Source: Chloroflexota bacterium (GTDB lineage: Bacteria; Chloroflexota; Dehalococcoidia; JACQUD01). Taken from it: 58,691 nt of DNA. The position numbers and the translations under genes are program-made. The notes under the pieces are model-generated. The model was not told the DNA's origin and did not search any database. It saw nothing but the letters and a program-made list of their open reading frames with translations. Positions within the stretch are counted from its first letter, which is position 1. Each line of letters starts with the position of its first letter. This document shows positions 2,740-17,056 of the stretch, one piece after another. Location of the stretch: contig JACQUD010000061.1 in assembly GCA_016210485.1 (NCBI GenBank), forward strand, positions 1 to 58,691, written 5' to 3'.

Positions 2740-4755
2740 CTACTTCTCGGATACGACGATGGTGCCCATCATCTCAGGATGAAGCGGACATGTCATGGTG
2801 AAGGTACCGGTATCGGGTGGCACAAAGGAAATAGCCAGCCAGCCACCTGCCCTGGCATGCAGGTGCACATCTATTCCGGTGGGGCATATCCCCGATTCGG
2901 AGTCACACACGTGGTAAGGTAGAAACAAAGCAGAGCGGAGGCTGTTGATGTCCGATGGCATGGGTCCCGTATCTTGTGATGAGAGCCAGAGAATGTCCTG
3001 GGCCGGCATCTGACGGGCATGGAAGTGATGCTCCACACTTCCGGTGTTCTCAAAGACCAGGACCACCCGCTGCCCCTTGACCAGCGACAGGCTGGCTGGC
3101 TCGAAGCCAGAATCGCTGCCCTTGACCTGAATGACGCGAGCATCGGCCAGGGAGACCCGCGTCAGTGTTTGCGAGGGGGTAGACGGAGATATGGGCAGGT
3201 GCCATACCAGAGGCGCTATAACTGCTTCAACGCAGTCATCGTCGGAAGCTACGGACAGCGTCAACACCTGATGTCCCCCTTTTATGAGAGGCGAGCCGCT
3301 CCCATCCTTCGATGGAAACAGGTAGTGCGTTGTGCGGTGATGACCATCGGAGAGCAGTGGCCTCACCCTGACAGGGGCAAACGGGCCTCTGCCGTCCACG
3401 GTAAGAACAAGGTTGAGCGCATCTTCAGGAAGGTCCGAGGCGTGAATCGACTGGGTCACCGTGAAAGAGATGCCGATGCCTCCTGACTCGATCTCTGGAG
3501 ACATGCGCCCGGTTAACTCAAACAGGAGGGGGGCCTCGTATATAGCCTCCAGGTCGCTGTCGCCCGGCCCCTGGCCAGCGCGGGTTAGCAGAGGTATCAA
3601 CTCCCTGACCATGGCAGCGGTCCTGAGGCTTCTTTGGACATCGTCCTCGGTGACTCCAGCTTTCGCTGTGGGAGGAGGCTCCTGTGTCGCGGGCCCCTCG
3701 GAAAAGACGGTCATCTTCCCCCGGATTTGGGGGTGAAGGGGGTCTTGCACGGCGAACGTTCCACTCCCAGCGGCAGAAAAGGACATGGCATCCAGCCCGC
3801 CCCCTTCGGCATAAAGATGGACCTCGTCAGCTCTGGGACAAACGCCGGCGGCCGAGGTGCACATGGTCAACAGAGCAAGGTCGGAATCTACAAAACTGGC
3901 GCTATGATCGTGCTCGTCGCTGCCCTCGGCGCCTAGTGTGTCATGATTCCCCCTGGACAGCCACCTGGGGTCTATCGGTGTCAACCCTATGACTTGATAG
4001 TGACGTTCGTCAGCGGTTTGATTTCGCAGTACTAGACTTATGGTCCATCCTGCAGGGATGAGGACCAACGCTGGCTGGATGCCGCCCTCTGTCATGTCCA
4101 CGTTTATGGTCATGTACCCGGCAGGGGCAAGGGACAGCGTGAGGTCACTCGTTTCAACGGGGACGACTGCGGTGGGCTCGCTTCCAGGCGCAGCGGCCTC
4201 ATCTTGACCAAACGTGCCAGCGCCGCCGGAGCGAGCAACCTGGAGCAGCCCCAGCAGCACTAAAGTGGCGACTACGCTCACCGATGTCATCCCAGCTAGC
4301 CTCAGGCGATGGGCCACGGCCTTTTTGGACACCTGCCTCCAGAACAGCAACACGCTCAGCGCCGCCACGATGCCCAACTCTAACGTCTTGGAGGCCACAT
4401 CTAGGATGCCCAAACCTTCCACGTGGCCAGCGTGCGCACCAAACAGGGGTATGCCCACGGTGCGGGTCACCACGTAGAAGCCAGCCATCCACAGATTGAG
4501 GGAGATGCCGGTGATCAAGTACCAGGGCGCTGCAAAGAGCCGCCTCCTGGGCGCCACGAGCCCCACTGCGTAGAGGCTCTGGAGCCCCGCTACCAAGAGG
4601 AAGAACCACCCATAGCCCCACCACTCTCTGAAATGCTCCGGGGCAAACGCCAGATGGATAGCAGAGGCGCCAAGGGAGAACAGGGCCGCCGAAGCTCTAA
4701 GGGTGAGCTGTTTCGTGACCCTGTAACGTATCTGGCCAACCCTCATCTTCTCCAC
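2740..4755 (-). CDS. Membrane-anchored protein with two paralogous cupredoxin-like domains, one with an intact Cys-His-Met pattern and one degenerate
   Basis: 671 aa, with about 5 N-terminal hydrophobic helices. The C-terminal domain ends 'FTMTCPLHPEMMGTIVV' (Cys-x2-His-x2-Met). Its internal paralog has 'FAVQDPLHPQIRGKMTVF', with Asp in place of Cys. Both carry a C-x6-C pair ('MCTSAAGVCP', 'VCDSESGICP') and His-rich strands ('EHHFHA', 'DVHLHA'). Confidence 0.7.
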   Translation of the reverse strand: MEKMRVGQIRYRVTKQLTLRASAALFSLGASAIHLAFAPEHFREWWGYGWFFLLVAGLQSLYAVGLVAPRRRLFAAPWYLITGISLNLWMAGFYVVTRTVGIPLFGAHAGHVEGLGILDVASKTLELGIVAALSVLLFWRQVSKKAVAHRLRLAGMTSVSVVATLVLLGLLQVARSGGAGTFGQDEAAAPGSEPTAVVPVETSDLTLSLAPAGYMTINVDMTEGGIQPALVLIPAGWTISLVLRNQTADERHYQVIGLTPIDPRWLSRGNHDTLGAEGSDEHDHSASFVDSDLALLTMCTSAAGVCPRADEVHLYAEGGGLDAMSFSAAGSGTFAVQDPLHPQIRGKMTVFSEGPATQEPPPTAKAGVTEDDVQRSLRTAAMVRELIPLLTRAGQGPGDSDLEAIYEAPLLFELTGRMSPEIESGGIGISFTVTQSIHASDLPEDALNLVLTVDGRGPFAPVRVRPLLSDGHHRTTHYLFPSKDGSGSPLIKGGHQVLTLSVASDDDCVEAVIAPLVWHLPISPSTPSQTLTRVSLADARVIQVKGSDSGFEPASLSLVKGQRVVLVFENTGSVEHHFHARQMPAQDILWLSSQDTGPMPSDINSLRSALFLPYHVCDSESGICPTGIDVHLHARAGGWLAISFVPPDTGTFTMTCPLHPEMMGTIVVSEK

Positions 4756-4895: not shown

Positions 4896-6464
4896 TTATT
4901 TCTTCGCGGCTGCGAGCTCCGCGACCTTGGCCCTTACGATGGCCCAGATGGATTCTGACTTGGGACCGCCCTGGTCGAGCAGCACCTCGCCAGTCCAGTC
5001 CGCGTTGTACCGAACGAATCCACCCGAGTGGGTATCCCCGCCATTGGGAGTCGGGATATAGGCCTTGGTCTTGTTCGTGTTCAGGTCCAGGACTATGGTC
5101 TCCCAGCCGTTCTGGTCGCTTATCCAGAGCTCGTTCACCGCCGGGTCCGGGTGTAGGATACCATGGTCTATGCTGGAGGCCGACCCACCCAGGGTGATCG
5201 GCAGTTGGGTAAACGTGCGGTCCTGCCTGAACAGGTTCGTGTCGATGACGCCCACCACGCCACCCTTGTTGTGGCTGCCCTCGCCCTTGCCAATGACGTA
5301 AAGGCGTGTCTCATCCCAGTTCAGGGCCAGCCCATAAGGCCCTGCCACCCCAGCACTGGTGCGAGCGACGACAGTGTTTGTGGTGTTGTCAATCTTGACA
5401 GTCTGGCTGGTCTCGGCATCGTTAACGTAGGTGAACTTGCCGTCCGCAGTGTGGGTGATGCCGATGGGGTGGTGTCCCACGTTCGGGATGACCGTCACCG
5501 CGCCGGTCTCCAGATTGAGCTTGGCTATCCCTGCCGCTGGAAACTCGGAACGCGTGATCTCTGGTGAATCCATGGAGATGTAGAGGAACTTGCCGTCGGG
5601 ACTGGGCGTCGTGAACGGATGGCCCATGGGCTTCACGTCGTCATACGTTATCGCCTTCACAACTCTGTTGTCATCCTTGGGGTCGAGTATGACGTGAGGG
5701 CCGCCGTCGGATCCGAAGCCGAACGTCAGGACCACCCGGTCCTGTCCCTTGGAATCTTTGAACGACTGGATGTGATGGAGATACTGCCTGCGCATCTTCC
5801 CCTGATAGTAGCTCTCCTGCTTGAGGAGCTTGTCTATCTTCAAGGTCCTCATATTGACGATGGCCACCACGGACTCGTCTTTGCCGGCAGCGTCCTTCTG
5901 TCCCCAGCCCACGTACGCCCACTTCCCATCCGGCGAGACCATGACGCCATGAGGATAGCGTATGATCTCCTGTCCCACGTTGAAAAGGGCCGACTTCACG
6001 ACTTCCTTGGTGTTGGCGTCTATGAGGTGGAAGCCGGCGAAGAACGGCGCGCTCTTGTCGTACTTGGGGCTAATGGACAGAGTGCCCTCGCTGCTAATGT
6101 ATATCAGGGGGTGGTCCTTGGCGCTCCAGGCATCGGGCCCGCTGGAGTCGTAAGTAGCCACCAGCTTTAACCCCGCTCGGATGGACTCCGCCGTGTCCCA
6201 TCCCGTGGGCTGGGCCGCCGCTGGGACAGGCTGGAGTTGGCCGGCCTGGACCATGGTAACAGGCGCCAGCCCCTTTATTTCCGCTTGAAGCTGCGAGACC
6301 TCGGACTCCTTCTCGACCACCTTGGCTTCAGCTACGGCCGCCCTGGCCTTGGCATCGTCCAGGTCTTTTTGAGACACGCCTCCACCGCAGGCCACAAGCA
6401 GCCCGACCAGCGCCACTAGGCCAGCGAGGAGGAGAAAGCGTTTTCTCGCTCGTGTTGACGGCAT
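4896..6464 (-). CDS. Lipoprotein with a charged coiled-coil-like linker and a His-rich beta-propeller (YVTN/cd1-like repeats)
   Basis: 522 aa with lipobox 'GLLVACGG'. Blade-like repeats include 'VMVSPDGKWAYVGWG', 'TTPSPDGKFLYISMD', 'GITHTADGKFTYVNDAETSQTVKIDNTTNTVV' and 'LALNWDETRLYVIGKG'. There are many conserved-looking His residues ('YLHHIQ', 'VGHHPIG', 'GDTHSGG'). Confidence 0.7.
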   Translation of the reverse strand: MPSTRARKRFLLLAGLVALVGLLVACGGGVSQKDLDDAKARAAVAEAKVVEKESEVSQLQAEIKGLAPVTMVQAGQLQPVPAAAQPTGWDTAESIRAGLKLVATYDSSGPDAWSAKDHPLIYISSEGTLSISPKYDKSAPFFAGFHLIDANTKEVVKSALFNVGQEIIRYPHGVMVSPDGKWAYVGWGQKDAAGKDESVVAIVNMRTLKIDKLLKQESYYQGKMRRQYLHHIQSFKDSKGQDRVVLTFGFGSDGGPHVILDPKDDNRVVKAITYDDVKPMGHPFTTPSPDGKFLYISMDSPEITRSEFPAAGIAKLNLETGAVTVIPNVGHHPIGITHTADGKFTYVNDAETSQTVKIDNTTNTVVARTSAGVAGPYGLALNWDETRLYVIGKGEGSHNKGGVVGVIDTNLFRQDRTFTQLPITLGGSASSIDHGILHPDPAVNELWISDQNGWETIVLDLNTNKTKAYIPTPNGGDTHSGGFVRYNADWTGEVLLDQGGPKSESIWAIVRAKVAELAAAKK

Positions 6465-6947: not shown

Positions 6948-7499
6948 ATGAAGTTACTGCGTGTGCGCTACCTGATACTCGGCCTCGCTGGCGTTTCCGT
7001 CCTTCTGGCAGCGTGCTCGTCCGGCGCGGGAGAAAAAGAACAGCCGCAAGCGACGGCCACGCCTACCCCGACGGCGGTCCGGGCTGTCGCGCCCACGGCA
7101 ACGGCGACCGCCGCGAGGACCCCCACCGCCCCGCCGCTGGCTGCCACTCCTACTCCGACGGCGACGGCAGGCAAGACTCCAACCTCTGTTGTACAGACGC
7201 CGTCATCGTCGGCATCGGGACAGGAGATCCAGGTGCTCATGAGAAACAACGTGTTTCCCGAAGAGATCCACGTGAAAGCGGGGACAAAAGTTGTCTTCGT
7301 GGTCATCAACGAGTCTGATAACGATGAGCACAGCTTCGAGTTTCCAGATTTCGGGCTCACCTATAAGGTGCAAGCCGGTGAGACCATAAGGATCGAGTGG
7401 CAGGCCCCCAACAGCAAGGGTGTGTGGGACGCGGGGTGCTTTCTTACCCAGCCTGGCGGGGTGCACGACGGGATGGAAGGTCTCTTGATCATCGAGTAG
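6948..7499 (+). CDS. Cupredoxin (type-1 copper) lipoprotein with a Thr/Pro/Ala-rich linker
   Basis: ORF track gives 6894..7499. I trimmed it to the ATG at 6948, which is preceded by AAGGAG and gives 'MKLLRVRYLILGLAGVSVLLAAC'. The C-terminus 'EHSFEF...GCFLTQPGGVHDGMEG' fits the His/Cys/His/Met ligand pattern. Confidence 0.75.
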   Translation: MKLLRVRYLILGLAGVSVLLAACSSGAGEKEQPQATATPTPTAVRAVAPTATATAARTPTAPPLAATPTPTATAGKTPTSVVQTPSSSASGQEIQVLMRNNVFPEEIHVKAGTKVVFVVINESDNDEHSFEFPDFGLTYKVQAGETIRIEWQAPNSKGVWDAGCFLTQPGGVHDGMEGLLIIE

Positions 7500-7518
7500 C
7501 AAGATAGGAGGGTGTTGA

Positions 7519-7911
7519 GTGAAGAGCATGAGATCTGTCGTTGGACTGCTGTCGCTTGCAGGACTTCTAGCGTTGGCTGCGTGCGGTTCCGGTGGGGGCG
7601 AGGCCAAGAACCCGCCGCCCCAGGCCCAGGGGATGGCGCAGGAGGTCAAGGTAGATATGGGCGACTATTTCTATGAGCCAAGCCAGCTCACCATCAAGGC
7701 GGGGCAGGTGCATTTCGTCCTGACCAACGTGGGCAAGACGGCCCACCGCTTCGCCATTACCGGAAATGGCGTGAAAGTGAGCAGTCGGAACGTGGGCGCC
7801 GGACGGGAAGGGACCCTGGATGTGGAACTGGCCCCGGGCACATACAAGATGGGGTGCACCCTTGGCGACCACGAGGCGCGGGGCTCGGTTGGACAGATCG
7901 TTGTCCAGTAG
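7519..7911 (+). CDS. Small cupredoxin (plastocyanin/azurin-like) lipoprotein with Ser at the expected axial-Met position
   Basis: 130 aa with lipobox 'LLALAAC'. It contains 'KTAHRFAI' and 'YKMGCTLGDHEARGSVGQIVV' (Cys-x4-His, then Ser where related proteins have Met). An AGGAGGG lies upstream of the GTG start. Confidence 0.8.
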   Translation: MKSMRSVVGLLSLAGLLALAACGSGGGEAKNPPPQAQGMAQEVKVDMGDYFYEPSQLTIKAGQVHFVLTNVGKTAHRFAITGNGVKVSSRNVGAGREGTLDVELAPGTYKMGCTLGDHEARGSVGQIVVQ

Positions 7912-8404
7912 CCGGGTCCCGGCCGCCCCGGCCCGCAGTCAACCCTATAAAGGGCGAGGAACAGGCAAAGCGCAGGCGCCCGGGTCCGGCGACGGATGGG
8001 GGGTCCAGGACATCCGCTGGCCAGCTATCTGGGCAGGGTACGCAGTCGCAACGCTGGTCACTCTGGCCGCCGGATTGCCCTTGCTGGCAGCCAAAGACAG
8101 CACCTGGCTCCTGGCCGCCTCAGGCTCGGCGGGCCTGCTGGCAGGCGGACTGGTTACAGGAAAGCGAGCAGGTCGGCAATTGGCCCTTCTCAACGGGGCT
8201 CTCCTTTGCGTGATGTACAACGTAAGCGTGGCAGGGGCGTTCTTCATCGGGTCCATACTCCAACTGCTTCCTGAACCGCTGCCTGGGCTCCCCCAGGGGG
8301 ACTCCACGTTCTTCTTCGCTTGGCCGCTGGCCCAGTTCGTGTTGGCGGTCGCGGGCGCCGCCGTAGGCAGCCGTATGTCAGTGAAGCGGAAGACGGGAGG
8401 GTAG
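7889..8404 (+). CDS. Small 4-TM membrane protein of unknown function
   Basis: The ORF is open from 7820 (ATG inside the upstream gene). In-frame TTG codons at 7889 and 7901 are more plausible starts, so the start is uncertain. Four hydrophobic segments are present ('WAGYAVATLVTLAAGLPLLAA' ... 'WPLAQFVLAVAGAAVG'). Confidence 0.5.
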   Translation: MDRSLSSSRVPAAPARSQPYKGRGTGKAQAPGSGDGWGVQDIRWPAIWAGYAVATLVTLAAGLPLLAAKDSTWLLAASGSAGLLAGGLVTGKRAGRQLALLNGALLCVMYNVSVAGAFFIGSILQLLPEPLPGLPQGDSTFFFAWPLAQFVLAVAGAAVGSRMSVKRKTGG

Positions 8405-8408
8405 GCAA

Positions 8409-9809
8409 GTGCCCCCAGATGTTCCCCTGATAAACGACCGCCTGGTATTGTGGGTGGTGGCAGAGCTTCATCTGCTGTTTGCGGCCTTCGTCCTGGGGGC
8501 GCCCATCTTCATCGTTATCTGTGAATATCTGGGCCTCAAGACCAGGGATGAACGATACGAGAGGCTGGCCAAGGAGACAATGAAGATTGTGGCCATCGCC
8601 TACAGTCTCACAGCCTTGTTTGGTGGCGCTATGACCTTCGTGCTGGTGGGGAAGTACCAGGAGTTCTCTAACTTCATCTTTCAGCGTTTCTATCCGATCT
8701 TCGGCCTCTATGCTTTGCTGTTGCTCGCGGAGTCCGGCCTTATGTATGTCTACTGGTACACCTGGGACGCCCTGGCAGGGCGAAAGCGCTGGCACATCAG
8801 CATCGGCGTTCTCCTCAATGTCCTGGGTACGCTGGTCATGTTCTTGATGAATGGGGTGGGCAGCTTCATGCTGACGCCTCCCGACTCTCCGGCGACGGCT
8901 ACTGTCTGGCAGTCGCTCAACAACGCCACCTGGACCGGACTGAACCTGCACCGGTTCGTGGCCAACATTTCGTTCGGCGGGTTCATGGTGGCGCTGTTCG
9001 CCGCCCTCATGTTCCTCACCAGCAAGAAAGAAGACGACAGGGCGTTCTACGATTGGATGGGCTACATCGGAAATTTCATCGGCGTAGCGGCCCTGGTAGT
9101 CCTGCCAGTGGCAGGGTATATCTACACCAAGGAGATATTCGCCTATGACGCCACCATAAGCACGCTTCTGATGGCGGACAAGCTGGCCTGGTTCTTCGTG
9201 ATGCAAGGTATCCTGGTGGGCTTCCTGTTCCTCGGAGCAGTGTACTACATGTGGTTGAGCATCCAGCGCATCGAAGGGGGCGCCCGCTTCCGCACCTATA
9301 TCCGCGGCGCCATCTGGGCCTGCCTGGTGGGACTCGCCGTCTGGCTGGTACCGCAGAGCTTCCTGCCATCCCTTACCGCCGAGCCAAGCGGCCCCATATC
9401 GGAGGTGACCATCCCCGAAAAGACGATCTTCCTGGGACTGATGCCGGCCAAGGGTCTGGCGGTGAGCGCAATAGTGGTGGTGACCGCCTTTGTGTATTTT
9501 CTGTATCGGCAGGCCATCGCTACCGGCAAGATGGCGTGGGGGCGCATAGATGTCAAGGCGCAACTTGTCCTTACGTTCCTGCCGGCCGTAGCGGTCTTCA
9601 CTATGGCCTTCATGGGCCCCATCCGTGAGATGGCCAGAGGCCAGTGGCACATCTTCCAGTTCATGCCCGACAAGACTCCTTACTCCTTCATCACGCCGCT
9701 AGGGTACACAGCTATCGTGGCCGGGGCCATAACCATTATTTTCTTTCTGCTGATGGGCGCCATCTTCTGGTTGGGCTTCAAGGTCGGCCACCAGAAGGAA
9801 ACTACGTAG
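8409..9809 (+). CDS. Cytochrome bd oxidase subunit I (CydA)-like polytopic membrane protein, with no CydB partner nearby
   Basis: 466 aa with about 12-14 hydrophobic segments. The N-terminus 'LVLWVVAELHLLFAAFVLGAPIF' resembles CydA helix 1 with its heme-ligand His. The GTG start follows GGGAGGG. This family call is made from memory of CydA sequences and has not been checked with an HMM. Confidence 0.65.
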   Translation: MPPDVPLINDRLVLWVVAELHLLFAAFVLGAPIFIVICEYLGLKTRDERYERLAKETMKIVAIAYSLTALFGGAMTFVLVGKYQEFSNFIFQRFYPIFGLYALLLLAESGLMYVYWYTWDALAGRKRWHISIGVLLNVLGTLVMFLMNGVGSFMLTPPDSPATATVWQSLNNATWTGLNLHRFVANISFGGFMVALFAALMFLTSKKEDDRAFYDWMGYIGNFIGVAALVVLPVAGYIYTKEIFAYDATISTLLMADKLAWFFVMQGILVGFLFLGAVYYMWLSIQRIEGGARFRTYIRGAIWACLVGLAVWLVPQSFLPSLTAEPSGPISEVTIPEKTIFLGLMPAKGLAVSAIVVVTAFVYFLYRQAIATGKMAWGRIDVKAQLVLTFLPAVAVFTMAFMGPIREMARGQWHIFQFMPDKTPYSFITPLGYTAIVAGAITIIFFLLMGAIFWLGFKVGHQKETT

Positions 9810-9822
9810 AGGAGACAGCGGG

Positions 9823-10413
9823 TTGCGTATTATCCTAATAGTAGTTGCGGTTATCGCGGCCATTTGGGTCGCTCCCGTTCTTATCTCTGAGGACTCAGGG
9901 CTTAAGTTCGGTGTCTCCTACCGGGTGCTGTTCACCCTGTTCGTCTTGTTTGCCGGCTTCCTGTTCTATCTGCTACGCGCTCCAGAGTGGAAGCCATTCA
10001 AATCGACGCCAAGGGCGGTGGGAAGCGTGGGGTTGGTCTTCGTCGCTGTCATCGGAGCTATCGTCCTCCTGGCCAACGTGTCTCCCCAGTTTGCCTCTGA
10101 GGGCCAGGCGTCCACGGGAGCATCCTCTGGGGAAAGGGGAAAGGCGGCGTTCTTCGACCCCGGCGTGGGCTGTTTTCTGTGCCACACGGTGGCGACTTCT
10201 GGTGGAACCAGGGGCCCCGATCTCACCCATGTGGCCACAGTGGCAGCCAACCGGCGGCCGGGCCTATCCGTCGAGGACTATTTGAAGGAATCTCTCTTCA
10301 GCCCCGGCGCCTACGTGGTGGCTACGTTCGATAACATCATGCCGCCCTTTGGCGATAGGCTGTCCCCCGAGCAACTCAAGGATATCCTGGCGTACCTGAT
10401 GTCATTGAGATAG
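9823..10413 (+). CDS. Membrane-anchored monoheme c-type cytochrome
   Basis: 196 aa with three N-terminal hydrophobic helices. It has a single 'CFLCH' heme-binding motif and a downstream 'NIMPPFG' (Met-Pro typical of class I cytochrome c sixth ligand). Confidence 0.8.
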   Translation: MRIILIVVAVIAAIWVAPVLISEDSGLKFGVSYRVLFTLFVLFAGFLFYLLRAPEWKPFKSTPRAVGSVGLVFVAVIGAIVLLANVSPQFASEGQASTGASSGERGKAAFFDPGVGCFLCHTVATSGGTRGPDLTHVATVAANRRPGLSVEDYLKESLFSPGAYVVATFDNIMPPFGDRLSPEQLKDILAYLMSLR

Positions 10414-10434
10414 GTCCCCTTTTCGGAAGGCAAG

Positions 10435-11622
10435 ATGTACCGACGCATCCTGGTCCCGGTGGACAATTCCCCTTACTCCGATTTTTCGGTGAGGCTGGCC
10501 GTGGACCTCGGCCGGAAGTTGGGGGCGCACCTAGTGGGCTGCCATGTATATGCCGCCCGCTTGCATGACGACCGGTTCCGGCAGATGGAAACGGGCTTGC
10601 CAGGCCGGTACCAGGAGAAGGACGAGCTCCGGCGGCAACGACAGGTGCACGACTCCCTCATCACCAAAGGGCTGCAGCTCATCTCTGATTCTTACCTCGA
10701 CCCCTTTGAGGCAAGGTGCCGGCAGGCCGGCGTCCCCTGCCAGCGCCGCGTGGTGGAGGGGACTAATTACGTAGAGCTGGCAAAGGAGGTCGAAAACAGC
10801 GGCTGCGACCTCGTCACGATGGGCATCCGGGGCCTGGGGGCGGTGGAAGAAAGCGTCATCGGCAGCGTGTGCGAACGCGTGGTGAGGAGGATCCGGTGCG
10901 CTGTGCTAGTAGCGAAGAACGACTCGCCCCTGGGCGGAAACATCGTGGCGGCCGTGGATGGTAGCTCGCGCTCCCTATCAGGCCTGAGGGCGGCCATAGC
11001 TCTGGGGAAGGTTTTTGGCGCTTCGGTAGAGGTGGTGGCCGTCTTCGACCCGTACTTTCACGGCATGGCATTCCGCAGCCTGGCCGGCGTCCTCTCGGAG
11101 GAGGCGGGTAAGGTATTCCGGTTCCGCGAGCAGGAGCGCCTCCACGACGAGATCATTCACGATGGGCTGCGCAAGTTGTACGAGTCTCACCTGGAGACGG
11201 CCGTGACGTTCGCCCGGTCGCAGGGCCTGGTGGTCACGTCCGCTCTTCTTCCGGGGAAGCCATTCCAGAAGGTGCTCCACTATATTCGGGAGCGGCGGGC
11301 CTCTCTTCTGGTGGTAGGACGGTTCGGTGCTCACTGCACAGGCACTACTGATATAGGTAGCACCGCAGAGAACCTGTTGCGGCTGGCTCCTTGCCACGTG
11401 CTCATCGCAAACGGGGACGAGCAGCCGGCTGTCGCCGACCTGCTTGTGAAGGAGGCTTCTCCCATACCTTGGACCGGGGAAGCTGAGGCGAAGTTGCAAC
11501 ACGTGCCTCCCTTCGCCCGAGGCATGGCCCGCAACGCCATAGACGACTACGCGAGACGCCATGGGCACGCCGAGGTGACGCCGGAAGTGATGGACAAAGC
11601 CCGAGGGGAAATGGGGATGTGA
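10435..11622 (+). CDS. Tandem universal stress protein (USP) domains fused to a C-terminal PCP_red-like (BchB C-terminal) domain
   Basis: 395 aa. 'MYRRILVPVDNSPYS...' and 'NIVAAVDGSSRS...' are the two USP cores. The tail 'IPWTGEAEAKLQHVPPFARGMARNAIDDYARRHGHAEVTPEVMDKAR' matches the W-T-x-E-A-E-x-x-L-x-x-(I/V)-P-F-F-V-R pattern of the ChlB/BchB C-terminus. Confidence 0.8.
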   Translation: MYRRILVPVDNSPYSDFSVRLAVDLGRKLGAHLVGCHVYAARLHDDRFRQMETGLPGRYQEKDELRRQRQVHDSLITKGLQLISDSYLDPFEARCRQAGVPCQRRVVEGTNYVELAKEVENSGCDLVTMGIRGLGAVEESVIGSVCERVVRRIRCAVLVAKNDSPLGGNIVAAVDGSSRSLSGLRAAIALGKVFGASVEVVAVFDPYFHGMAFRSLAGVLSEEAGKVFRFREQERLHDEIIHDGLRKLYESHLETAVTFARSQGLVVTSALLPGKPFQKVLHYIRERRASLLVVGRFGAHCTGTTDIGSTAENLLRLAPCHVLIANGDEQPAVADLLVKEASPIPWTGEAEAKLQHVPPFARGMARNAIDDYARRHGHAEVTPEVMDKARGEMGM

Positions 11623-11705
11623 CGTCGGTCCTGGTCCTGGCAGCGGGCTCGGCCAAGGGACTTTGGACAGGCGCGGCAACGGAATATGTGGAGGAGGGCA
11701 GACCT

Positions 11706-12602
11706 ATGGCAAGGAAGCACAGAGGCATTGCGGCTGATGGCGGCTCTGATATCGTGGCCCAGGTAGTCGCTCAGGGCGACCGCCTGGGGTCGCGGATGGC
11801 GCTCGTTCGGCACAAGATCGCGGTCATGAGCGGGAAGGGAGGGGTGGGCAAGAGCTCCATAACCGCCAACCTGGCGGCAGTCCTGGCCTCCCAGGGATAC
11901 CAGGTGGGAATTCTGGACGCCGATATCAACGGCCCTGCTATAGCCAAGATGCTGGGCGTGCGTGCGCAAAACCTGTCCCTAAGCGAGAACGCCATCCTAC
12001 CGGCCCTCGGGCCCCGCAGCATCAAAGTCATGTCCATGGACCTGCTCTTGCCCGGGGACAAGACGCCGGTGATCTGGGAAGCTCCCACCCAACAGAACTC
12101 GTTCGTCTGGCGAGGGACGATAGAGGCGAGCGCCTTGAGGGAGTTCCTGGCCGACACCGCTTGGGGCGAGTTAGACTTCCTGCTGGTAGACCTACCACCT
12201 GGAACGTACACTTTTCCGACCCTGGAGCAACTGGTGCCTGACCTTGTGGGCATCATTGTTACCATTCCGTCCGAAGTTTCACATCTGGTGGTCAAGCGAT
12301 TCATCAGCCTGGCTCAGGAGTTGGGGACTCTGCTGGCGGGTCTGGTGGAGAACATGGCCGGCTATACTTGCCCGCACTGTGGCAAGGTGGGCGAGCTTTT
12401 CTCTGCCGCAGGCGATGGCGAGAGAATGGTGGCGGAGATGGGCATATCTTACCTGGGCAGCATACCCTTCGACGCCAGGCTTTCGGCATCCGCTGACTGG
12501 GGCATCCCTTTTGCCCTGGAGCATGGCGGGTCTCCTGCGGGACAGGCCCTGGCCCATGTGGCAGCCAAAGTCAAGGAGTTCGTTGGAGAGTCCCGAAGAT
12601 GA
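11706..12602 (+). CDS. Mrp/NBP35 (ApbC) family P-loop ATPase / Fe-S cluster carrier
   Basis: It contains 'KIAVMSGKGGVGKSS' (deviant Walker A) and 'YTCPHCG' (the CxxC of the family). The ATG at 11706 is preceded by GGAGGAGGG. A longer form from the GTG at 11619, overlapping the upstream stop as GTGA, is also possible. Confidence 0.85.
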   Translation: MARKHRGIAADGGSDIVAQVVAQGDRLGSRMALVRHKIAVMSGKGGVGKSSITANLAAVLASQGYQVGILDADINGPAIAKMLGVRAQNLSLSENAILPALGPRSIKVMSMDLLLPGDKTPVIWEAPTQQNSFVWRGTIEASALREFLADTAWGELDFLLVDLPPGTYTFPTLEQLVPDLVGIIVTIPSEVSHLVVKRFISLAQELGTLLAGLVENMAGYTCPHCGKVGELFSAAGDGERMVAEMGISYLGSIPFDARLSASADWGIPFALEHGGSPAGQALAHVAAKVKEFVGESRR

Positions 12603-13039
12603 AGCTTTCTTGCGGCAATTGCGCACAGGCGATGCAACTCGTGAAAGCGACAGATCTGGCCGATGGATCGATGTCCATCATCTTCGGTTGTGCTTCCTGC
12701 GGGAATCGCGTCTCCCTTTTGACCAATCCAGGAGAGACTCAACTGGTCAGAGCCCTCGATGTCCAGATCGGTGGCCGGACTGTGCCCCCAGAACCGATGG
12801 GACTAGTGAGGAGCGCTCTTGCTCGACAGCGTGACGACGCCTTTGTCTCGCAGTCGGACGTTCCCCAGCCCAAGGAAGGGGTTATCTGGACCGAGGACGC
12901 TTTGAGGCGGCTGGAGAATGTGCCCGCTTTCGTTAGGGATATGGCGCGGAAGTCCATCGAGAGATACGCTATGGAAAAGGGCTGTCATCAGATCACCCCT
13001 GAGGTGATGGACCTGGCCAGGAAGGCGACCGGCGGATGA
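12599..13039 (+). CDS. Small zinc-ribbon protein with a C-terminal PCP_red-like domain
   Basis: 146 aa. The motifs 'CGNC...CASCGN' form a 4-Cys ribbon. The tail is 'VIWTEDALRRLENVPAFVRDMARKSIERYAMEKGCHQITPEVMDLAR'. It has ATGA overlaps with both neighbouring genes. Confidence 0.75.
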   Translation: MKLSCGNCAQAMQLVKATDLADGSMSIIFGCASCGNRVSLLTNPGETQLVRALDVQIGGRTVPPEPMGLVRSALARQRDDAFVSQSDVPQPKEGVIWTEDALRRLENVPAFVRDMARKSIERYAMEKGCHQITPEVMDLARKATGG

Positions 13040-14316
13040 GAGATTCCTCGTTGGGGAAGAGCGGGTCGGTTGAGCGCGGACCAGACTCACCGTCGTACCA
13101 TGGATTGCCCGAAGTCCCCACGCGTCCCGAGATCGTCTCCTGGAACGTTACCAGGCGATGCAATCTATCGTGTCCCCATTGCTACCTGAACGCCGGTCTG
13201 CCAGCGGAGCGGGAACTGACAACCCAGGAGGGCCTGCGATTAGTAGACGAGATGGCTGCCATCGGCACCAGGATGCTCATCCTCAGCGGGGGCGAGCCTC
13301 TGTTGAGAAGCGACCTCTTCCAGATCGCGGCGCGAGCCTCCGGGGTGGGGATGTCCGTGGTTCTGGGGAGCAACGGGACCCTGCTCTCTCTGGAGGTAGC
13401 TCGGCATCTCTCGGCCGCCGGGGTGAAGGGGGTTGGGATCAGCCTTGATTCATTAACTCCCGAACGGCATGATGCCTTCCGTGGGGTTGCCGGGGCCTGG
13501 AAGGCAGCGCTGAAAGGATTGGACTCTTGCCGCCAGGCGGGTCTGCCAGTGCTCATTCAAATGTCCTTGTTTGACTGGAATTACAGCGAGATTGACGACA
13601 TGGTCCGTTTCGCGCACGATCGCGGTGCTGCGGGTTTCAATCTCTATTTCCTGGTTTGCTCGGGCAGAGGGGAAGCTCTTACCGACATCGGTCCCGACCA
13701 GTACGAAGAAGCGTTGGAGACCGTGGTGAAAGCCCAGGCTCGAAACCCTCAGATCATGGTGAGAGTCCGCTGCGCTCCCTATGTGACCAGAGTGGCACAT
13801 CAACTAGGTCATCCCTCGTCTGCCGGTTTCGGATGCATGGCTGGGATCAGCTACGGTCGGATAACCCCGGAGGGCGATCTGACTCCCTGCCCTTACTTGC
13901 CTCTATCTGTTGGCAACGTCGGGCAGCAGCCGCTCGCCCATCTGTGGTGGGATTCCAGTCTGCTGGGAGACTTGAGATTGGGTGGACTGAGGGGCCGTTG
14001 TGGCCACTGCCAGTATGGCGACTCTTGCCGAGGATGTCGGGCCAGGGCCTGGTCCGACACCGGTGACTTGCTCCAGGAAGATCCCTGGTGTCGCTACGAT
14101 GGACAAACTGCCCCATCGCCGTTGCTCGGAGGAGTGGTCTGGAGCAGTGAGGCTGAGGAGCGACTGAAGCGGGTGCCCTTTTTCCTGAGGAATGGGATCA
14201 GAGCAGCGGTAGCGGCCTACGCCAAGAGACAGGGGCAGGCCACCATAACTGTCGGCCTGATGGAGGAGGTACGCGCCAAGATGCGGCCAGGAGGCCCCAC
14301 TCAGACAGTTCAGTAG
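13036..14316 (+). CDS. Radical SAM/SPASM enzyme of NirJ/AhbC/AhbD-like type with a C-terminal PCP_red-like domain
   Basis: 426 aa. 'VSWNVTRRCNLSCPHCY' is the CX3CX2C motif, and 'CGHCQYGDSCRGCRARA' is the SPASM/twitch Cys cluster with a NirJ-family-like 'GCRARA'. The tail is 'VVWSSEAEERLKRVPFFLRNGIRAAVAAYAKRQGQATITVGLMEEVR'. Confidence 0.8.
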   Translation: MRDSSLGKSGSVERGPDSPSYHGLPEVPTRPEIVSWNVTRRCNLSCPHCYLNAGLPAERELTTQEGLRLVDEMAAIGTRMLILSGGEPLLRSDLFQIAARASGVGMSVVLGSNGTLLSLEVARHLSAAGVKGVGISLDSLTPERHDAFRGVAGAWKAALKGLDSCRQAGLPVLIQMSLFDWNYSEIDDMVRFAHDRGAAGFNLYFLVCSGRGEALTDIGPDQYEEALETVVKAQARNPQIMVRVRCAPYVTRVAHQLGHPSSAGFGCMAGISYGRITPEGDLTPCPYLPLSVGNVGQQPLAHLWWDSSLLGDLRLGGLRGRCGHCQYGDSCRGCRARAWSDTGDLLQEDPWCRYDGQTAPSPLLGGVVWSSEAEERLKRVPFFLRNGIRAAVAAYAKRQGQATITVGLMEEVRAKMRPGGPTQTVQ

Positions 14317-14622
14317 GCGAAGCTTTTTGCCCGGCTTGGCGCTGCGTTGTCGAACGCGAGCATCCCGGTGAAGCTCTAGGGGCGGTGAAGGAGCAGGCTG
14401 TTCGCTTCAACACCCTGCACAGGGAGTGCGGGAACAGCATCCAGATGCCCAAGTGGTGTGCCCAGTGCGAGTTGCGGCGAGTAGAAGGAGGTGAACATAG
14501 GGCTGGCGATATCAGACAGACAGCGAGTGGCTTCACCCCAAGTCGCTACCTCAGACGTAACGGCGATGAGGCTGCCACTCACCAATGCCGCCCCAGACTG
14601 CTAGCTGGAGGCTGAGTTCAAA

Positions 14623-14662
14623 GGTAGCGCGGGTTCTGTCTATTGTTACCGATGCTCCACCA
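14623..14662 (+). repeat. Copy 1 of a 40-nt repeat ending in GCTCCACCA
   Basis: ggtagcgcgggttctgtctattgttaccgatgctccacca. It is 29/40 identical and of equal length to the copy at 15466-15505 (hand alignment). Confidence 0.6.
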
Positions 14663-14681
14663 GGGAAGGACTCGAACCTTC
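14657..14681 (-). pseudogene. tRNA 3'-end fragment (T-arm plus acceptor 3' strand) with no matching 5' half
   Basis: The minus strand reads GAAGG-TTCGAGT-CCTTC-CCTGGTG-G. I found no complementary CACCAGG within 120 nt upstream. Confidence 0.45.
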
Positions 14682-14730
14682 ATGACGGCGACTAAATACT
14701 GAGATTGAAGGTCAGGTCAAAGTCCTTGAG

Positions 14731-14758
14731 AGTTCTACTTATTGATACCCTAGCTCCA
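14731..14758 (+). repeat. 28-nt partial copy of the 40-nt repeat
   Basis: agttctacttattgataccctagctcca is 26/28 identical to 15475-15502. It is followed by a degenerate restart, 'agttctaccttta'. Confidence 0.6.
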
Positions 14759-14890
14759 GTTCTACCTTTATTCCACCGTTGATTTCCAAAATTGTCCACA
14801 AAAATGTTTGCTAAGTTGCAAATGAGCAACCCAACCCAAGGCAATATTGTTTATTAATTTTTGCGAATGACTGAGCCAAAAGGAAGCAAT

Positions 14891-14917
14891 TTGACCGTGA
14901 AACCAGCACCGTATAAT
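14891..14917 (+). promoter_or_regulatory. Sigma70-like promoter of the islet gene
   Basis: TTGACC (14891-14896), a 15-nt spacer and TATAAT (14912-14917), about 40 nt upstream of the ATG at 14959. The spacer is short. Confidence 0.35.
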
Positions 14918-14958
14918 ATTTGTAGCATGTCAATAAATCACACGACGAGGAGAATGGT

Positions 14959-15399
14959 ATGAAGAAGAGATTTGTCTTGTCTGCGCTGGCCAGCGCCGTG
15001 ACGGTGCTCATTCTCAATGGAGTCATCTACGCTCTGTTTTATGGTGACTTCTTGAAAAACAATTCCGGACTGTCTGTAGAATTGTTTGAAAAGGTGCAAA
15101 GACCTGTAGACCAAACCAATATTCCTGCCACCATTCTTTCGATGCTCGTTATCGGATGCCTTATTACTACCGTTGTCCATTGGGTAAAAGCAAAAACGTT
15201 TATCAATGGTTTAAAGTTCGGGTTCATTTTCGCTGTCCTCATGGTTGGCTCTGTAAATCTCGGGCTGCTCGCCACCACCTATTATTACTCAACTAAATCA
15301 GGCATCATCGATATTTTCGTGGGGGCGGCGACAATTGCAATCGGCGGCGGGGTTGCCGCCTTGATAATGGGTGGGGGCACAAAGCCTGCAAAGGCCTGA
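14959..15399 (+). CDS. Small 4-TM membrane protein (possibly DUF1761-like) encoded in low-GC DNA
   Basis: 146 aa with a GAGGAG RBS. Hydrophobic segments include 'LSALASAVTVLILNGVIYALFYG', 'ILSMLVIGCLITTVV', 'FIFAVLMVGSVNLGLL' and 'FVGAATIAIGGGVAALIMG'. Confidence 0.7.
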   Translation: MKKRFVLSALASAVTVLILNGVIYALFYGDFLKNNSGLSVELFEKVQRPVDQTNIPATILSMLVIGCLITTVVHWVKAKTFINGLKFGFIFAVLMVGSVNLGLLATTYYYSTKSGIIDIFVGAATIAIGGGVAALIMGGGTKPAKA

Positions 15400-15465
15400 A
15401 CATAACCGGAACATTACCCCACCGTAACGGAGACGAACCAGTGGTCAAGAGACGATAGTAAACGT

Positions 15466-15505
15466 GGTAGAAAAAGTTCTACCTATTGATACCCTGGCTC
15501 CACCA
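15466..15505 (+). repeat. Copy 2 of the 40-nt repeat ending in GCTCCACCA
   Basis: ggtagaaaaagttctacctattgataccctggctccacca. It starts with a 7-bp hairpin, GGTAGAA/TTCTACC. Confidence 0.6.
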
Positions 15506-15586
15506 CTCGCAACGCGAATGCTGTCTGGTCAGGTATTATGCGGAGAGGTCTAGGGCGAGCTCAAAAGTTCTTGCTTCTGTACGGTA

Positions 15587-15611
15587 TGGTGGGCCAGACG
15601 GGATTCGAACC
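15587..15611 (-). pseudogene. tRNA 3'-end fragment with encoded CCA
   Basis: The minus strand reads GGTTCGAATCCCGTCTGGCCCACCA. The upstream sequence (GAAGG) does not pair with the CCCGT T-stem strand, and no GGGCCAG 5' acceptor strand is present. Confidence 0.5.
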
Positions 15612-15739
15612 TTCGGTTACCCCATGGTTATACAATAGTCCTTATCAATAGGGGCCGGGCACCCTCAAGGTTTCCAAATACCTGCAAGCCGCGCAATGTC
15701 GGGATCCAATAAGAGATCGTTGCCGAGTTTACATAGTGA

Positions 15740-15919
15740 CTAGCGGAGTAGCCGGGGAAGGACGAATAGCGAGGAGATGACTAAAATCCCGCCCAGGGCC
15801 ATGAGGGCTAGGCCCAGGAGAGGCTGGCGGCTCTCGGCAGCGCCCACCCAGACCCTCCACCCGGCTAGGCCCGCCGCTATCCCCAGGGGGAACAAGGCCC
15901 CGATTAACCACCTCTTCAT
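15740..15919 (-). CDS. Unlisted 59-aa two-TM mini-protein
   Basis: It is below the ORF-track length cut-off. The reverse complement gives MKRWLIGALFPLGIAAGLAGWRVWVGAAESRQPLLGLALMALGGILVISSLFVLPRLLR*. A GAGGAGG lies about 12 nt upstream, and an extended -10 (TGCTATAAT, 15950-15955) sits further upstream. Confidence 0.5.
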   Translation of the reverse strand: MKRWLIGALFPLGIAAGLAGWRVWVGAAESRQPLLGLALMALGGILVISSLFVLPRLLR

Positions 15920-16128
15920 GAGTGGAACTTGCCTCCTCGCTTTTGCCCCATTATAGCACGGGCGAGTGACGCTATGTATAGTTACTACGGCTGCGGTAAG
16001 GTTCGACGAGCTTAGTCGAGCCGCTCAGGATGAGGCATCAGAGTTAGTCAGGATTTCTCACTCCTGGTGATCCTGTATAGACAGGTGATGAGATAGAAAA
16101 ACGTTACTAAAATCCTGCCTAAGTGGTC

Positions 16129-16156
16129 TTGACAGCCCGATGGAAAGCCTTATAAT
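16129..16156 (+). promoter_or_regulatory. Near-consensus sigma70 promoter
   Basis: TTGACA (16129-16134), a 16-nt spacer and TATAAT (16151-16156). Confidence 0.6.
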
Positions 16157-16164
16157 TATGCGGA

Positions 16165-16248
16165 ATGGCTACGATATTCAGATCAGCCTTGAGCCACCCT
16201 GACGCTGGGGTGGCTTTTTTGTGTTCGGTATCTAGAAAGGTGGTATAG
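16165..16248 (+). CDS. Candidate leaderless 27-codon uORF spanning the leader terminator
   Basis: The ATG lies 8 nt after the -10 box. It encodes MATIFRSALSHPDAGVAFLCSVSRKVV*, and its TAG ends 1 nt before the ATG at 16250. Confidence 0.25.
   Translation: MATIFRSALSHPDAGVAFLCSVSRKVV
16192..16220 (+). terminator. Intrinsic terminator-like hairpin in the leader of the DUF47/PiT operon
   Basis: The 8-bp stem AGCCACCC / GGGTGGCT has an 8-nt loop and is followed by TTTTTT. Confidence 0.6.
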
Positions 16249-16249
16249 C

Positions 16250-16876
16250 ATGGTTGGGCATTTCTTACACCAGCGCGTCAATTTCTTCGATTTGCTGGAG
16301 AAGAGCTCGACTAATCTGCTCCAAGCCGCCAAGACACTTGTCGATTTAATGGAAGACTATCCCAGCCTTCAGCTGAAAGTGGCCGAGATCATGGAGCTGG
16401 AGCATCGTGGCGATACGCTGACACACCAGATTATGGAGCAACTTCATCTGATCTTTGTTACCCCCATAGATCGAGAGGACATCGTGTTGCTGACACAGCG
16501 GCTGGACGATGTCTTGGATGCCATCGAGGCAGGTGTTCAACTCTTGATCCTCTATAAAATTGAGCGACCCACAGAGCGGGCCAGGGAGCAGGCACGGCTC
16601 ATTCTCCGAGTGGTGGAGGCAGTCACCCTGGCTATGCAGCAGCTCCGTCAGCATCGCAAGTTGCGCCAGCTCCTGACTCACTGTGTAGAGATCAATACCC
16701 TGGAAAACGAGGCCGACCAGACCTATCGCCAGGCCCTGGCCGAGCTTTTCCAGGACTCCATGCCCATCATCGACATTATCAAGTGGCGGGAGATTTATGA
16801 GCTGTTCGAATCGGCGGTGGACAGGGCCGAGGACGTGGCCGATGTCCTGGAGGGCGTGGTCTTGAAGTATGCCTGA
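16250..16876 (+). CDS. DUF47 (PhoU-like, TIGR00153-type) phosphate-transport accessory protein
   Basis: 208 aa and all-helical. 'ELEHRGDTLTHQI...TPIDREDI' and 'LENEADQTYRQAL...' are the duplicated PhoU-like motifs. It is paired with a PiT transporter, which is the usual arrangement. Confidence 0.8.
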   Translation: MVGHFLHQRVNFFDLLEKSSTNLLQAAKTLVDLMEDYPSLQLKVAEIMELEHRGDTLTHQIMEQLHLIFVTPIDREDIVLLTQRLDDVLDAIEAGVQLLILYKIERPTERAREQARLILRVVEAVTLAMQQLRQHRKLRQLLTHCVEINTLENEADQTYRQALAELFQDSMPIIDIIKWREIYELFESAVDRAEDVADVLEGVVLKYA

Positions 16877-17056
16877 GTCCAGAGAACCAGAGCGTACACG
16901 CTTCCATAATGGGTGAGCTATCTGTTCTTCGCCGAGCCGTCGCCGTCCTGCTCTCGAGCGCTCGTTTTTGTGCCTCGCTAGCGCTTGGCACTGCTCTCGT
17001 GGCAAGAACGCCTATTGACTCTCAGCCGGTGAAGCTCGAAGCTGGGGGAGGAGTAC

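Follow-up and report, generated by a model that had tools for sequence, protein, structure and literature searches.

A bd-like oxidase gene block joined to a PCP_red-tagged radical SAM module, a candidate heme maturation system, in a Dehalococcoidia genome

Nine co-directional, closely packed genes at positions 6948-14316 of a 58,691-nucleotide contig from a Chloroflexota bacterium of the class Dehalococcoidia (this whole stretch of DNA is referred to here as the window) bring together two sets of proteins. The membrane half is made up of two cupredoxin lipoproteins (g1 and g2), a small membrane protein (g3), a CydA-like subunit of the OR-N or 'bd-like' type (g4) and a membrane-anchored cytochrome c (g5), while the cytoplasmic half is made up of a universal stress protein (USP; g6), an Mrp-type P-loop protein (g7), a small zinc-ribbon-like protein (g8) and a radical S-adenosylmethionine (SAM) enzyme (g9), with the small PCP_red domain found at the C-terminus of g6, g8, and g9. 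The pairing of bd-like oxidases with PCP_red proteins recurs across about a dozen bacterial phyla. We modestly favor a reading in which the block is one functional unit and its cytoplasmic half serves the bd-like oxidase as a dedicated system for heme maturation or insertion.

Conservation of the oxidase and PCP_red pairing

With the CydA-like protein as the anchor, 80 loci were taken from one-genome-per-species contigs and homologues of every window protein were located in each (loci are identified by L numbers). Thirty of these form the core loci: their CydA-like protein shows 50% identity or more, and their downstream sequence extends for 3 kb or more. The cytochrome c (g5) and the Usp-PCP_red protein (g6) are each present in 29 of the 30, and the protein with three to four transmembrane (TM) helices (g3) and the radical SAM-PCP_red enzyme (g9) are each present in 28. 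The zinc-ribbon PCP_red protein (g8) is found in 13/30 and Mrp (g7) in 11/30; both are variable accessories and not part of the core, as is g1, which has counterparts only in the closest relatives (L001-L003 and L006). The closest relatives come from Chloroflexi/Dehalococcoidia groundwater metagenome-assembled genomes (MAGs). The core loci span Chloroflexota, Gaiellaceae/Actinomycetota, Bipolaricaulia, Fraserbacteria, Betaproteobacteria, and Acidobacteria, with more distant versions in Caldilineales, a Clostridiales MAG, Nitrospirae, and Gammaproteobacteria, and because the arrangement is conserved across phyla, it lies far beyond chance. In some loci (L006, L008, L077, L166), the module is positioned upstream of cydA, downstream of it or on the opposite strand. 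This variation in gene order and strand argues for selection on linkage rather than common descent of one operon.

The same association is recovered from the opposite direction. When metagenomes were scanned with the radical SAM enzyme as the anchor, a CydA-like gene was found nearby in 7/21 loci with PCP_red-tailed enzymes, many of which are on short contigs, compared with 0/59 loci with tail-less AhbD/NirJ2 homologues (Fisher p = 4e-5), and a second PCP_red protein is present in 17/22 tailed loci. Radical SAM-anchored loci from Polyangiales and Rhodothermales also adjoin Cyt_bd_oxida_I genes. Standalone PCP_red proteins ('PCP reductase family'), of which five were chosen only for lying on long contigs, fall within bd-like oxidase clusters in 5/5 cases; a Cyt_bd_oxida_I gene is called in four of the five loci, and the other, L170, is fragmented, with a cytochrome c and EB_dh and no called CydA. 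In these clusters, Gemmatimonadaceae included, cytochromes c are accompanied by Usp(-PCP_red), frequently by an EbdC-like subunit and in most cases by radical SAM-PCP_red, and EB_dh-type clusters with the same PCP_red module are found elsewhere (L082, L166, L167). The first-pass annotation of this DNA had proposed that the electron carriers and the PCP_red/radical SAM set act as one functional unit, and had suggested a neighborhood search with the CydA-like and radical SAM proteins as joint anchors. Searches anchored on each of these proteins find the block conserved across genomes, the outcome in which the two never co-occur is not seen, and conserved synteny (28/30 and 29/30, with the reverse anchors in agreement) strongly supports the proposal. 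As a separate observation, two SAR202/Dehalococcoidia loci (L025, L034) hold the cupredoxin-cydA-cytochrome c-3-4-TM core at 48-49% identity with no PCP_red gene within ~10 kb, so that the module can, in some lineages, be unlinked or dispensed with. The cupredoxin-cydA-cytochrome c core is also present on L035, a MAG contig of Thermaerobacter marianensis.

The radical SAM enzyme and the PCP_red proteins

The g9 gene (13036..14316) encodes a protein with Radical_SAM (Pfam, 1.2e-30), SPASM, and C-terminal PCP_red (6.5e-14) domains, an architecture found in all of its close homologues. Its start is ambiguous between ATG 13036 and 13105, the latter giving the 403-aa called product P0121. When compared with curated families, g9 scores 342 bits against NirJ2 (TIGR04055) and 277 bits against AhbD (TIGR04545), with peptide maturases such as MftC and PqqE reaching at most 133 bits. 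The radical SAM cluster motif CX3CX2C (C42/C46/C49) and the auxiliary cluster motif CX2CX5CX2CX17C (C322...C352) are invariant in the alignment, and the auxiliary motif is exactly that quoted for AhbD (PMC10114771). In a neighbor-joining tree of the catalytic core, all 56 PCP_red-tailed enzymes fall into one clade. Two of its members, from L004 and L012, are the only 'tail-less' ones, with no tail in the same reading frame: the L012 gene extends to the end of its contig, and in L004 a PCP_red match lies separately, just downstream of the gene. The tail-less neighbors in the tree pass the AhbD or NirJ2 cutoffs, at 506-605 bits. The AlphaFold2 (AF2) model of g9 adopts the SPASM radical SAM fold, and Foldseek returns generic SPASM enzymes only, matches that are uninformative about the substrate because the PDB holds no AhbD or NirJ structure. 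Judged by its sequence, g9 is an AhbD/NirJ2-like enzyme of its own clade. It shares both cluster motifs and full-length similarity with AhbD (radical SAM heme b synthase) and NirJ2, but differs from them in scoring below the family cutoffs, in its separate clade, in its additional PCP_red domain, and in having a bd-like oxidase rather than ahbABC as its genomic partner.

Where the cluster occurs in Nitrospirae and Gammaproteobacteria, the gene directly after radical SAM-PCP_red encodes a proto/coproporphyrinogen oxidase of the HemY type (L060 8937-10325 and L077 118-1584), with TIGR00562 scores of 304 and 261 bits, respectively, against a cutoff of 98, and tblastn places additional HemY homologues in L087, L090, L092, and L119. 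Small ferredoxins and Mrp also recur near the radical SAM enzyme, which fits its richness in Fe-S clusters and its need for a reductant. For the oxygen-independent (anaerobic) decarboxylation of coproheme, an AhbD-like protein is the enzyme to be expected (PMC10114771). It is this expectation, together with the AhbD/NirJ2 kinship and motif, the HemY adjacency and the Mrp and ferredoxin neighbors, that leads us to regard the cytoplasmic half as heme-directed. The genes described earlier as a 'cofactor or Fe-S maturation set' look directed at heme rather than generic.

The three PCP_red copies in the block score 52-64 bits against a cutoff of 32.5, and the domain matches 2kru, 2l09, and 3aek_B in the PDB. 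PCP_red is also the C-terminal domain of subunit B (BchB/ChlB) of DPOR (dark-operative protochlorophyllide oxidoreductase), which has this domain in common with g6, g8, and g9, but not its catalytic domains. A role for the block proteins in DPOR or chlorophyll synthesis was rejected, as BchB models match over the last 50-65 residues only and the nitrogenase-like catalytic domains are absent. The conserved residues of the domain are limited to W, A, P, R, and A, and when fusion architectures were sought with a PCP_red profile, all matches were short standalone proteins. Tandem PCP_red domains are seen in other clusters; USP proteins carry as many as four copies and radical SAM proteins as many as three, and the number is lineage-dependent (L087 7747-11995; L092 8312-10384; L060 6743-8935). 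Its presence on varied proteins, in tandem and standalone, would suit a common docking or cofactor-carrier tag. A radical SAM enzyme fused to a small domain that is also standalone in the same cluster recalls NifB-NifX (PMC13474568) and HemW (PMC10114771); this is an analogy only, with no sequence relationship to the block proteins, and the carrier role of PCP_red is one that we infer. In the searchable literature, PCP_red outside DPOR is treated only in a passing remark on archaeal USP fusions, and the DPOR structure papers found make no statement on the role of the PCP_red region.

The remaining cytoplasmic proteins are each assigned to a family or motif class. The g6 gene (10435..11622) encodes tandem USP domains (Pfam Usp 1e-40, two domains) with a C-terminal PCP_red (1.4e-15). 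Both USP domains carry an ATP-type G-x2-G-x9-G-S motif, at residues 130-144 and 295-309, in keeping with G-x2-G-x9-G-(S/T), which we take to be the nucleotide motif of ATP-binding USPs (UspFG/MJ0577 class). The g7 product (11706..12602, in an ORF that opens with GTG 11619) is an Mrp/NBP35/ApbC-type P-loop Fe-S carrier (Pfam ParA/NUBPL, PF10609, 2.1e-74, 250 bits), with a deviant Walker A motif, GKGGVGKS, and a cluster-bridging CxxC, CPHC. Its membership in the MrpORP/orange-protein complex was considered and rejected (256 bits against a cutoff of 450), and it also falls under the ApbC equivalog cutoff. The small g8 protein (12599..13039) has an N-terminal, zinc-ribbon-like CxxC...CxxC, a conserved LTNPxETQLV motif and a C-terminal PCP_red (Pfam, 1.6e-17), as seen across 27 orthologs.

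The membrane half, the layout of the block and its surroundings

At the center of the membrane half is g4 (8409..9809), a CydA-like subunit of 466 aa. Pfam PF01654 (Cyt_bd_oxida_I) matches at 2e-18 over residues 11-246 only, ending at position 240 of the 418-position profile, and the g4 family profile aligns to the solved CydA chains 9r2g and 5doq across the N-terminal half. The AF2 model (pLDDT 78) contains ~11 TM helices joined by short loops only, and its top 10 Foldseek matches are all CydA chains (TM-score 0.47-0.59). Residues were mapped by spacing and by profile alignment to 5doq, and compared with Table S6 of Murali et al. (2021). H21, Y101, E108, Y115, Y117, H129, and H181 are invariant across the family alignment, where H21, E108, H129, and H181 align with CydA H19 (H21), E107 (E108), H126, and H186, Tyr101 replaces CydA E99, and Y115 and Y117 occupy the F114 and F116 positions; the equivalents of CydA M393 and E445 are unmapped. 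The partial Pfam match and the short loops of the AF2 model reveal no Q-loop or quinol site, and none of the nine block proteins matches a CydB family. As in OR-N enzymes, g4 is a CydA homologue without a quinol site that retains the O2-site helices and the His19 equivalent, and it fits the residue signature of OR-N2, with the Y/E proton-channel pair, Y/Y, and the H126 and H186 equivalents. The OR-N2 architecture is not reproduced: g4 has ~11 helices and not 14, the block has one monoheme cytochrome c, and no block protein matches EB_dh. On sequence grounds, g4 is an OR-N-type relative of cytochrome bd oxidase, with an OR-N2-like signature, a shorter architecture and other partners.

Each of the known systems closest to the membrane half shares some of its parts. 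A Q-loop-less CydA-like subunit and cytochrome c donors are features of the OR-N family of Nitrospira, Nitrospina, and Ca. Manganitrophus (Murali, Gennis and Hemp, 2021). In contrast to OR-N2, the window has a single monoheme cytochrome c with cupredoxins and a 3-4-TM subunit in place of multiple cytochromes c and an EbdC-like heme b subunit, and the paper and its supplements mention no radical SAM, cupredoxin or PCP_red partner (Murali et al., 2021). The canonical cytochrome bd quinol oxidase, CydAB(X), has the same subunit I fold as g4 and the same residues at those heme-site His and Glu positions that align, but g4 lacks the Q-loop, the quinol site and CydB, identity is only 11-16%, and the putative donors for g4 are a periplasmic cytochrome c and cupredoxin. 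The nitrite oxidoreductase (NXR) clusters of Kuenenia, Nitrospira, and Nitrospina hold a Q-loop-less bd-like protein, cytochromes c with one or two hemes, a pair of cupredoxin-like proteins and a putative zinc-finger protein (PMC3578206), the same mix of parts, although the likeness is by the description in that paper only. Unlike these clusters, the window contains neither a nitrite oxidoreductase nor any other molybdoenzyme. The bd-like protein of the NXR clusters spans the membrane with 14 TM helices, and no radical SAM/USP/PCP_red set is described there (PMC3578206).

The electron carriers flank g4. The g1 cupredoxin lipoprotein (6948..7499; Pfam Cupredoxin_1 6.6e-09) has the lipobox LAAC and, as read from its motifs, the full type-1 copper ligand set, His ... 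C164-x8-H173-x2-M176. A split N2O reductase composed of g1 and the beta-propeller protein encoded upstream was considered and rejected, as the g1 site is a single-Cys type-1 site and not CuA, and the propeller has no NosZ match. The second cupredoxin lipoprotein, g2 (7519..7911; Cupredoxin_1 1.6e-11, Copper-bind 3.4e-05), also has an LAAC lipobox; its His76, Cys113, and His118 are kept in all 40 orthologs, the axial Met is absent, and it is the conserved partner directly upstream of the CydA-like gene in most related loci. The g3 protein (7901..8404, start uncertain) is predicted from hydropathy and its orthologs to be a small 3-4-TM membrane protein. It has an invariant motif, LPxPLPGLPxGDSTFFFxWPL, and no conserved His across 36 orthologs, Pfam and NCBIfam searches gave no match, and it is probably a structural subunit. 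The g5 product (9823..10413; Pfam Cytochrom_C 2.4e-08) is a membrane-anchored monoheme cytochrome c with ~3 TM helices by hydropathy, a CFLCH heme motif at residues 117-121 and a conserved MPP.

The first-pass annotation had described a tightly packed block on one strand, and most of this description was reproduced. All nine ORFs are on the + strand, with spacers of 19 nt (g1-g2), at most 0 (g2/g3), 4 (g3-g4), 13 (g4-g5), and 21 nt (g5-g6), and ATGA stop/start overlaps are present at 12599-12602 and 13036-13039. The domain calls were also confirmed: two cupredoxins, Cyt_bd_oxida_I, cytochrome c, two Usp domains with PCP_red, ParA/NUBPL (Mrp), PCP_red, and Radical_SAM with SPASM and PCP_red. 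The exception is the GTGA overlap at 11619-11622, which is probably unused. The sequence GGAGGAGGG precedes ATG 11706, and similarity to orthologs sets in at residues 25-32 of the long ORF, and for these two reasons g7 probably starts at ATG 11706, which leaves a g6-g7 gap of 83 nt. The g1 start, ATG 6948, is preceded by the ribosome-binding site AAGGAG. For g3, no in-frame ATG, GTG or TTG exists between 7911 and 8075; the gene therefore begins at TTG 7901 or further upstream, overlapping g2 by at least 11 nt. Its orthologs start just past the g2 stop, where the window gene has no canonical start codon. This could reflect an N-terminal extension of 31 aa from TTG 7901 that is not conserved, a non-canonical start, or a sequence error. 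As had been noted, no convincing intrinsic terminator lies inside the block, where a scan gave nine weak stems of 5-10 bp against 7.3 expected by chance. Internal promoter signals within the block are at chance level, no Rfam-type structured RNA reaches its gathering score in the 6-17 kb region, and, in line with the earlier observation, composition shifts only past the block, with GC content dropping from ~0.61 to 0.41 at roughly 14.5-14.65 kb. Closely spaced genes with no convincing terminator between them are consistent with a single transcription unit.

The neighborhood of the block is unusually rich in copper proteins. On the - strand, a divergent 522-aa lipoprotein with a YVTN-type beta-propeller (4896-6464; no Pfam match, PDB 1l0q 5.6e-15) is kept next to the block in L001-L003 and L006. 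Eight of its His residues, H118, H172, H230 and H231 (an HH pair), H398, H434, H438, and H479, are invariant in five orthologs (34-70% identity), and these may form a multi-His metal site that would make the protein a candidate periplasmic partner of the cupredoxins. This propeller is echoed in a Fraserbacteria locus, L026, where a YVTN propeller and a BNR/sortilin-type propeller (12576-13733 and 15470-17530) lie between the 3-4-TM and radical SAM genes. Also on the - strand of the window are a 671-aa protein with N-terminal TM helices and at least one cupredoxin-like domain (2740-4755; Pfam Cupredoxin_1 8e-14; kept in L002 and L003), in which a second such domain is possible by eye, followed by a double-rhodanese protein (1726-2727). 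Directly after the block is a low-GC island (14600-15500; GC 0.41 compared with ~0.61) that holds a 146-aa hydrophobic ORF with no family match (14959-15399) and could be a foreign insertion. The rest of the window, as judged from the larger ORFs scanned, is chromosomal housekeeping, including his, leu, and thr genes, ligA, uvrD, and a phosphate transporter. In other genomes, an aa3-type heme-copper oxidase operon (COX1, COX2, COX3, COX4_pro) abuts the bd-like/PCP_red cluster on the opposite strand (L168 13177-17171; L170 13775-17950), an 800-890-aa HEAT-repeat protein with PBS-lyase-like repeats recurs in Gammaproteobacteria-type clusters (L077 6401-9073; L087 4323-7483), and a ~240-aa CarboxypepD_reg-like protein recurs in L087 and in a Polyangiales cluster (L081, 4527-5240).

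Proposed function and alternative explanations

In the mechanism that we propose, the CydA-like subunit would most likely take electrons from the membrane-anchored cytochrome c and the cupredoxin lipoprotein(s), and the complex, from what is known of its family, would most likely reduce O2; cytochrome c-dependent O2 reduction is favored for OR-N enzymes by Murali et al. (2021) and PMC10839748. On the cytoplasmic side, Mrp/NBP35 (g7) would load the Fe-S clusters of g9. The substrate of g9 is most likely an iron tetrapyrrole, presumably a heme, whose side chains it would modify in the manner of AhbD. AhbD itself acts on coproheme or a related heme, which it decarboxylates oxidatively so that propionate becomes vinyl. 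The product of g9 would make, tailor or hand over the heme(s) required by the bd-like subunit, with the PCP_red domain common to USP (g6), the zinc-ribbon protein (g8), and g9 acting as a docking or cofactor-carrier tag. A more specific version, which is speculative and which we hold to be rather unlikely, is that PCP_red is a tetrapyrrole carrier or docking domain and that g9 makes a non-standard, side-chain-modified heme specifically required by OR-N oxidases, possibly through an O2-independent route to a heme d-like cofactor.

Several observations weigh against a dedicated heme system for an O2-reducing enzyme. Anammox bacteria carry bd-like genes despite a strictly anaerobic life (PMC3578206), which questions universal O2 reduction, and no experimental work on OR-N enzymes or on PCP_red outside DPOR was found in the searchable literature (PMC10839748). 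PCP_red has no conserved His, Cys, Met or Tyr able to ligate heme iron, and g9 falls under the AhbD and NirJ2 equivalog cutoffs (500 bits for both), such that its substrate may differ. Other heme-synthesis genes are absent from the larger ORFs scanned in the window. The relation between the two halves is also asymmetric: PCP_red modules nearly always adjoin a bd-like oxidase, but around many of the more distant OR-N genes, at 36-49% identity (for example in SAR202, Nitrospira, and marine Proteobacteria), 10 kb of sequence holds no PCP_red gene. Three module loci (L089, L090, L111) have no CydA-like gene nearby, so that either the dependence is not universal or the genes can be unlinked.

An alternative account of the cytoplasmic half takes g9 as a general oxygen-independent coproheme decarboxylase, the heme b synthase of a coproporphyrin-type pathway, that sits beside the oxidase through shared low-oxygen expression, with the USP as a hypoxia or stress regulator. 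This is compatible with the exact AhbD motifs of g9, the adjacent HemY in six loci, the AhbD-like enzyme predicted for anaerobic coproheme decarboxylation (PMC10114771) and the ATP-binding motifs in both USP domains. However, a housekeeping enzyme is not expected to track one oxidase family over about a dozen phyla or to carry the special C-terminal tag seen on two more proteins of the cluster, genuine AhbD/NirJ2 homologues that lack the tail lie near CydA-like genes in 0/59 cases, and the larger ORFs scanned in the window include no hemE/hemH/hemQ-type gene, leaving this account unlikely. We consider it quite improbable that g9 is instead a protein or peptide maturase that modifies an oxidase subunit or g8, by cross-linking or otherwise, with PCP_red as its substrate-recognition domain. 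The SPASM domain of g9 does have eight conserved Cys, its nearest solved folds are PqqE, SkfB, SuiB, and anSME, and the small conserved g8 is encoded directly upstream in many loci, but the nearest sequence families are tetrapyrrole enzymes (NirJ2 at 342 and AhbD at 277 bits, compared with at most 133), g9 carries the AhbD-specific cluster motif, and HemY is adjacent in several loci. The fold matches are, in addition, uninformative with AhbD and NirJ structures absent from the PDB, and most of the core loci lack g8.

For the membrane half alone, it has been proposed that the bd-like proteins of Nitrospina, Nitrospira, and Kuenenia, which occur alongside cytochromes c, two cupredoxin-like proteins and a zinc-finger protein, form a link resembling alternative complex III between periplasmic cytochrome c or cupredoxin and the quinone pool, for reverse electron transport (PMC3578206). 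Such a role, which is compatible with a maturation module in the cytoplasm, would agree with the Tyr found in g4 at the proton-channel position of E99. It appears doubtful here, as g4 has no Q-loop or other recognizable quinone site, retains the His ligand of the O2-site heme and the E107, H126, and H186 equivalents, and has no NXR or other quinone-linked partner among the window ORFs scanned, and the OR-N literature favors cytochrome c-dependent O2 reduction (Murali et al., 2021; PMC10839748). Finally, the adjacency could be meaningless, with two unrelated operons abutting and the 83-nt g6-g7 gap housing an internal promoter. The pairing survives gene-order shuffling in many phyla and the association is statistically strong, and this explanation is highly improbable and effectively refuted.

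The first-pass annotation could name no characterized system with this composition. None is characterized, but the electron-carrier half belongs to a kind that has been described, both as OR-N (Murali et al., 2021) and among NXR-cluster genes (PMC3578206). The OR-N membrane half is of a known but uncharacterized kind, and the PCP_red/radical SAM accessory module is previously undescribed in the searchable literature, where no paper was found that connects either a radical SAM enzyme or PCP_red with bd-like oxidases. OR-N bd-like oxidases are the proposed terminal oxidases of nitrite oxidizers, manganese oxidizers and many groundwater lineages, and their subunit composition, cofactors and function were still unconfirmed as of 2024 (PMC10839748). 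A dedicated maturation module would provide a concrete gene list for co-expression toward an active OR-N enzyme, and would be a candidate for a heme-tailoring or heme-insertion step not previously known. It would also give PCP_red its first functional context outside chlorophyll synthesis, with PCP_red outside DPOR as a simple genomic marker for this class of respiratory cluster. If the non-standard heme reading were true, the module would represent a new heme-tailoring and insertion pathway and explain why these widespread OR-N enzymes have resisted characterization.

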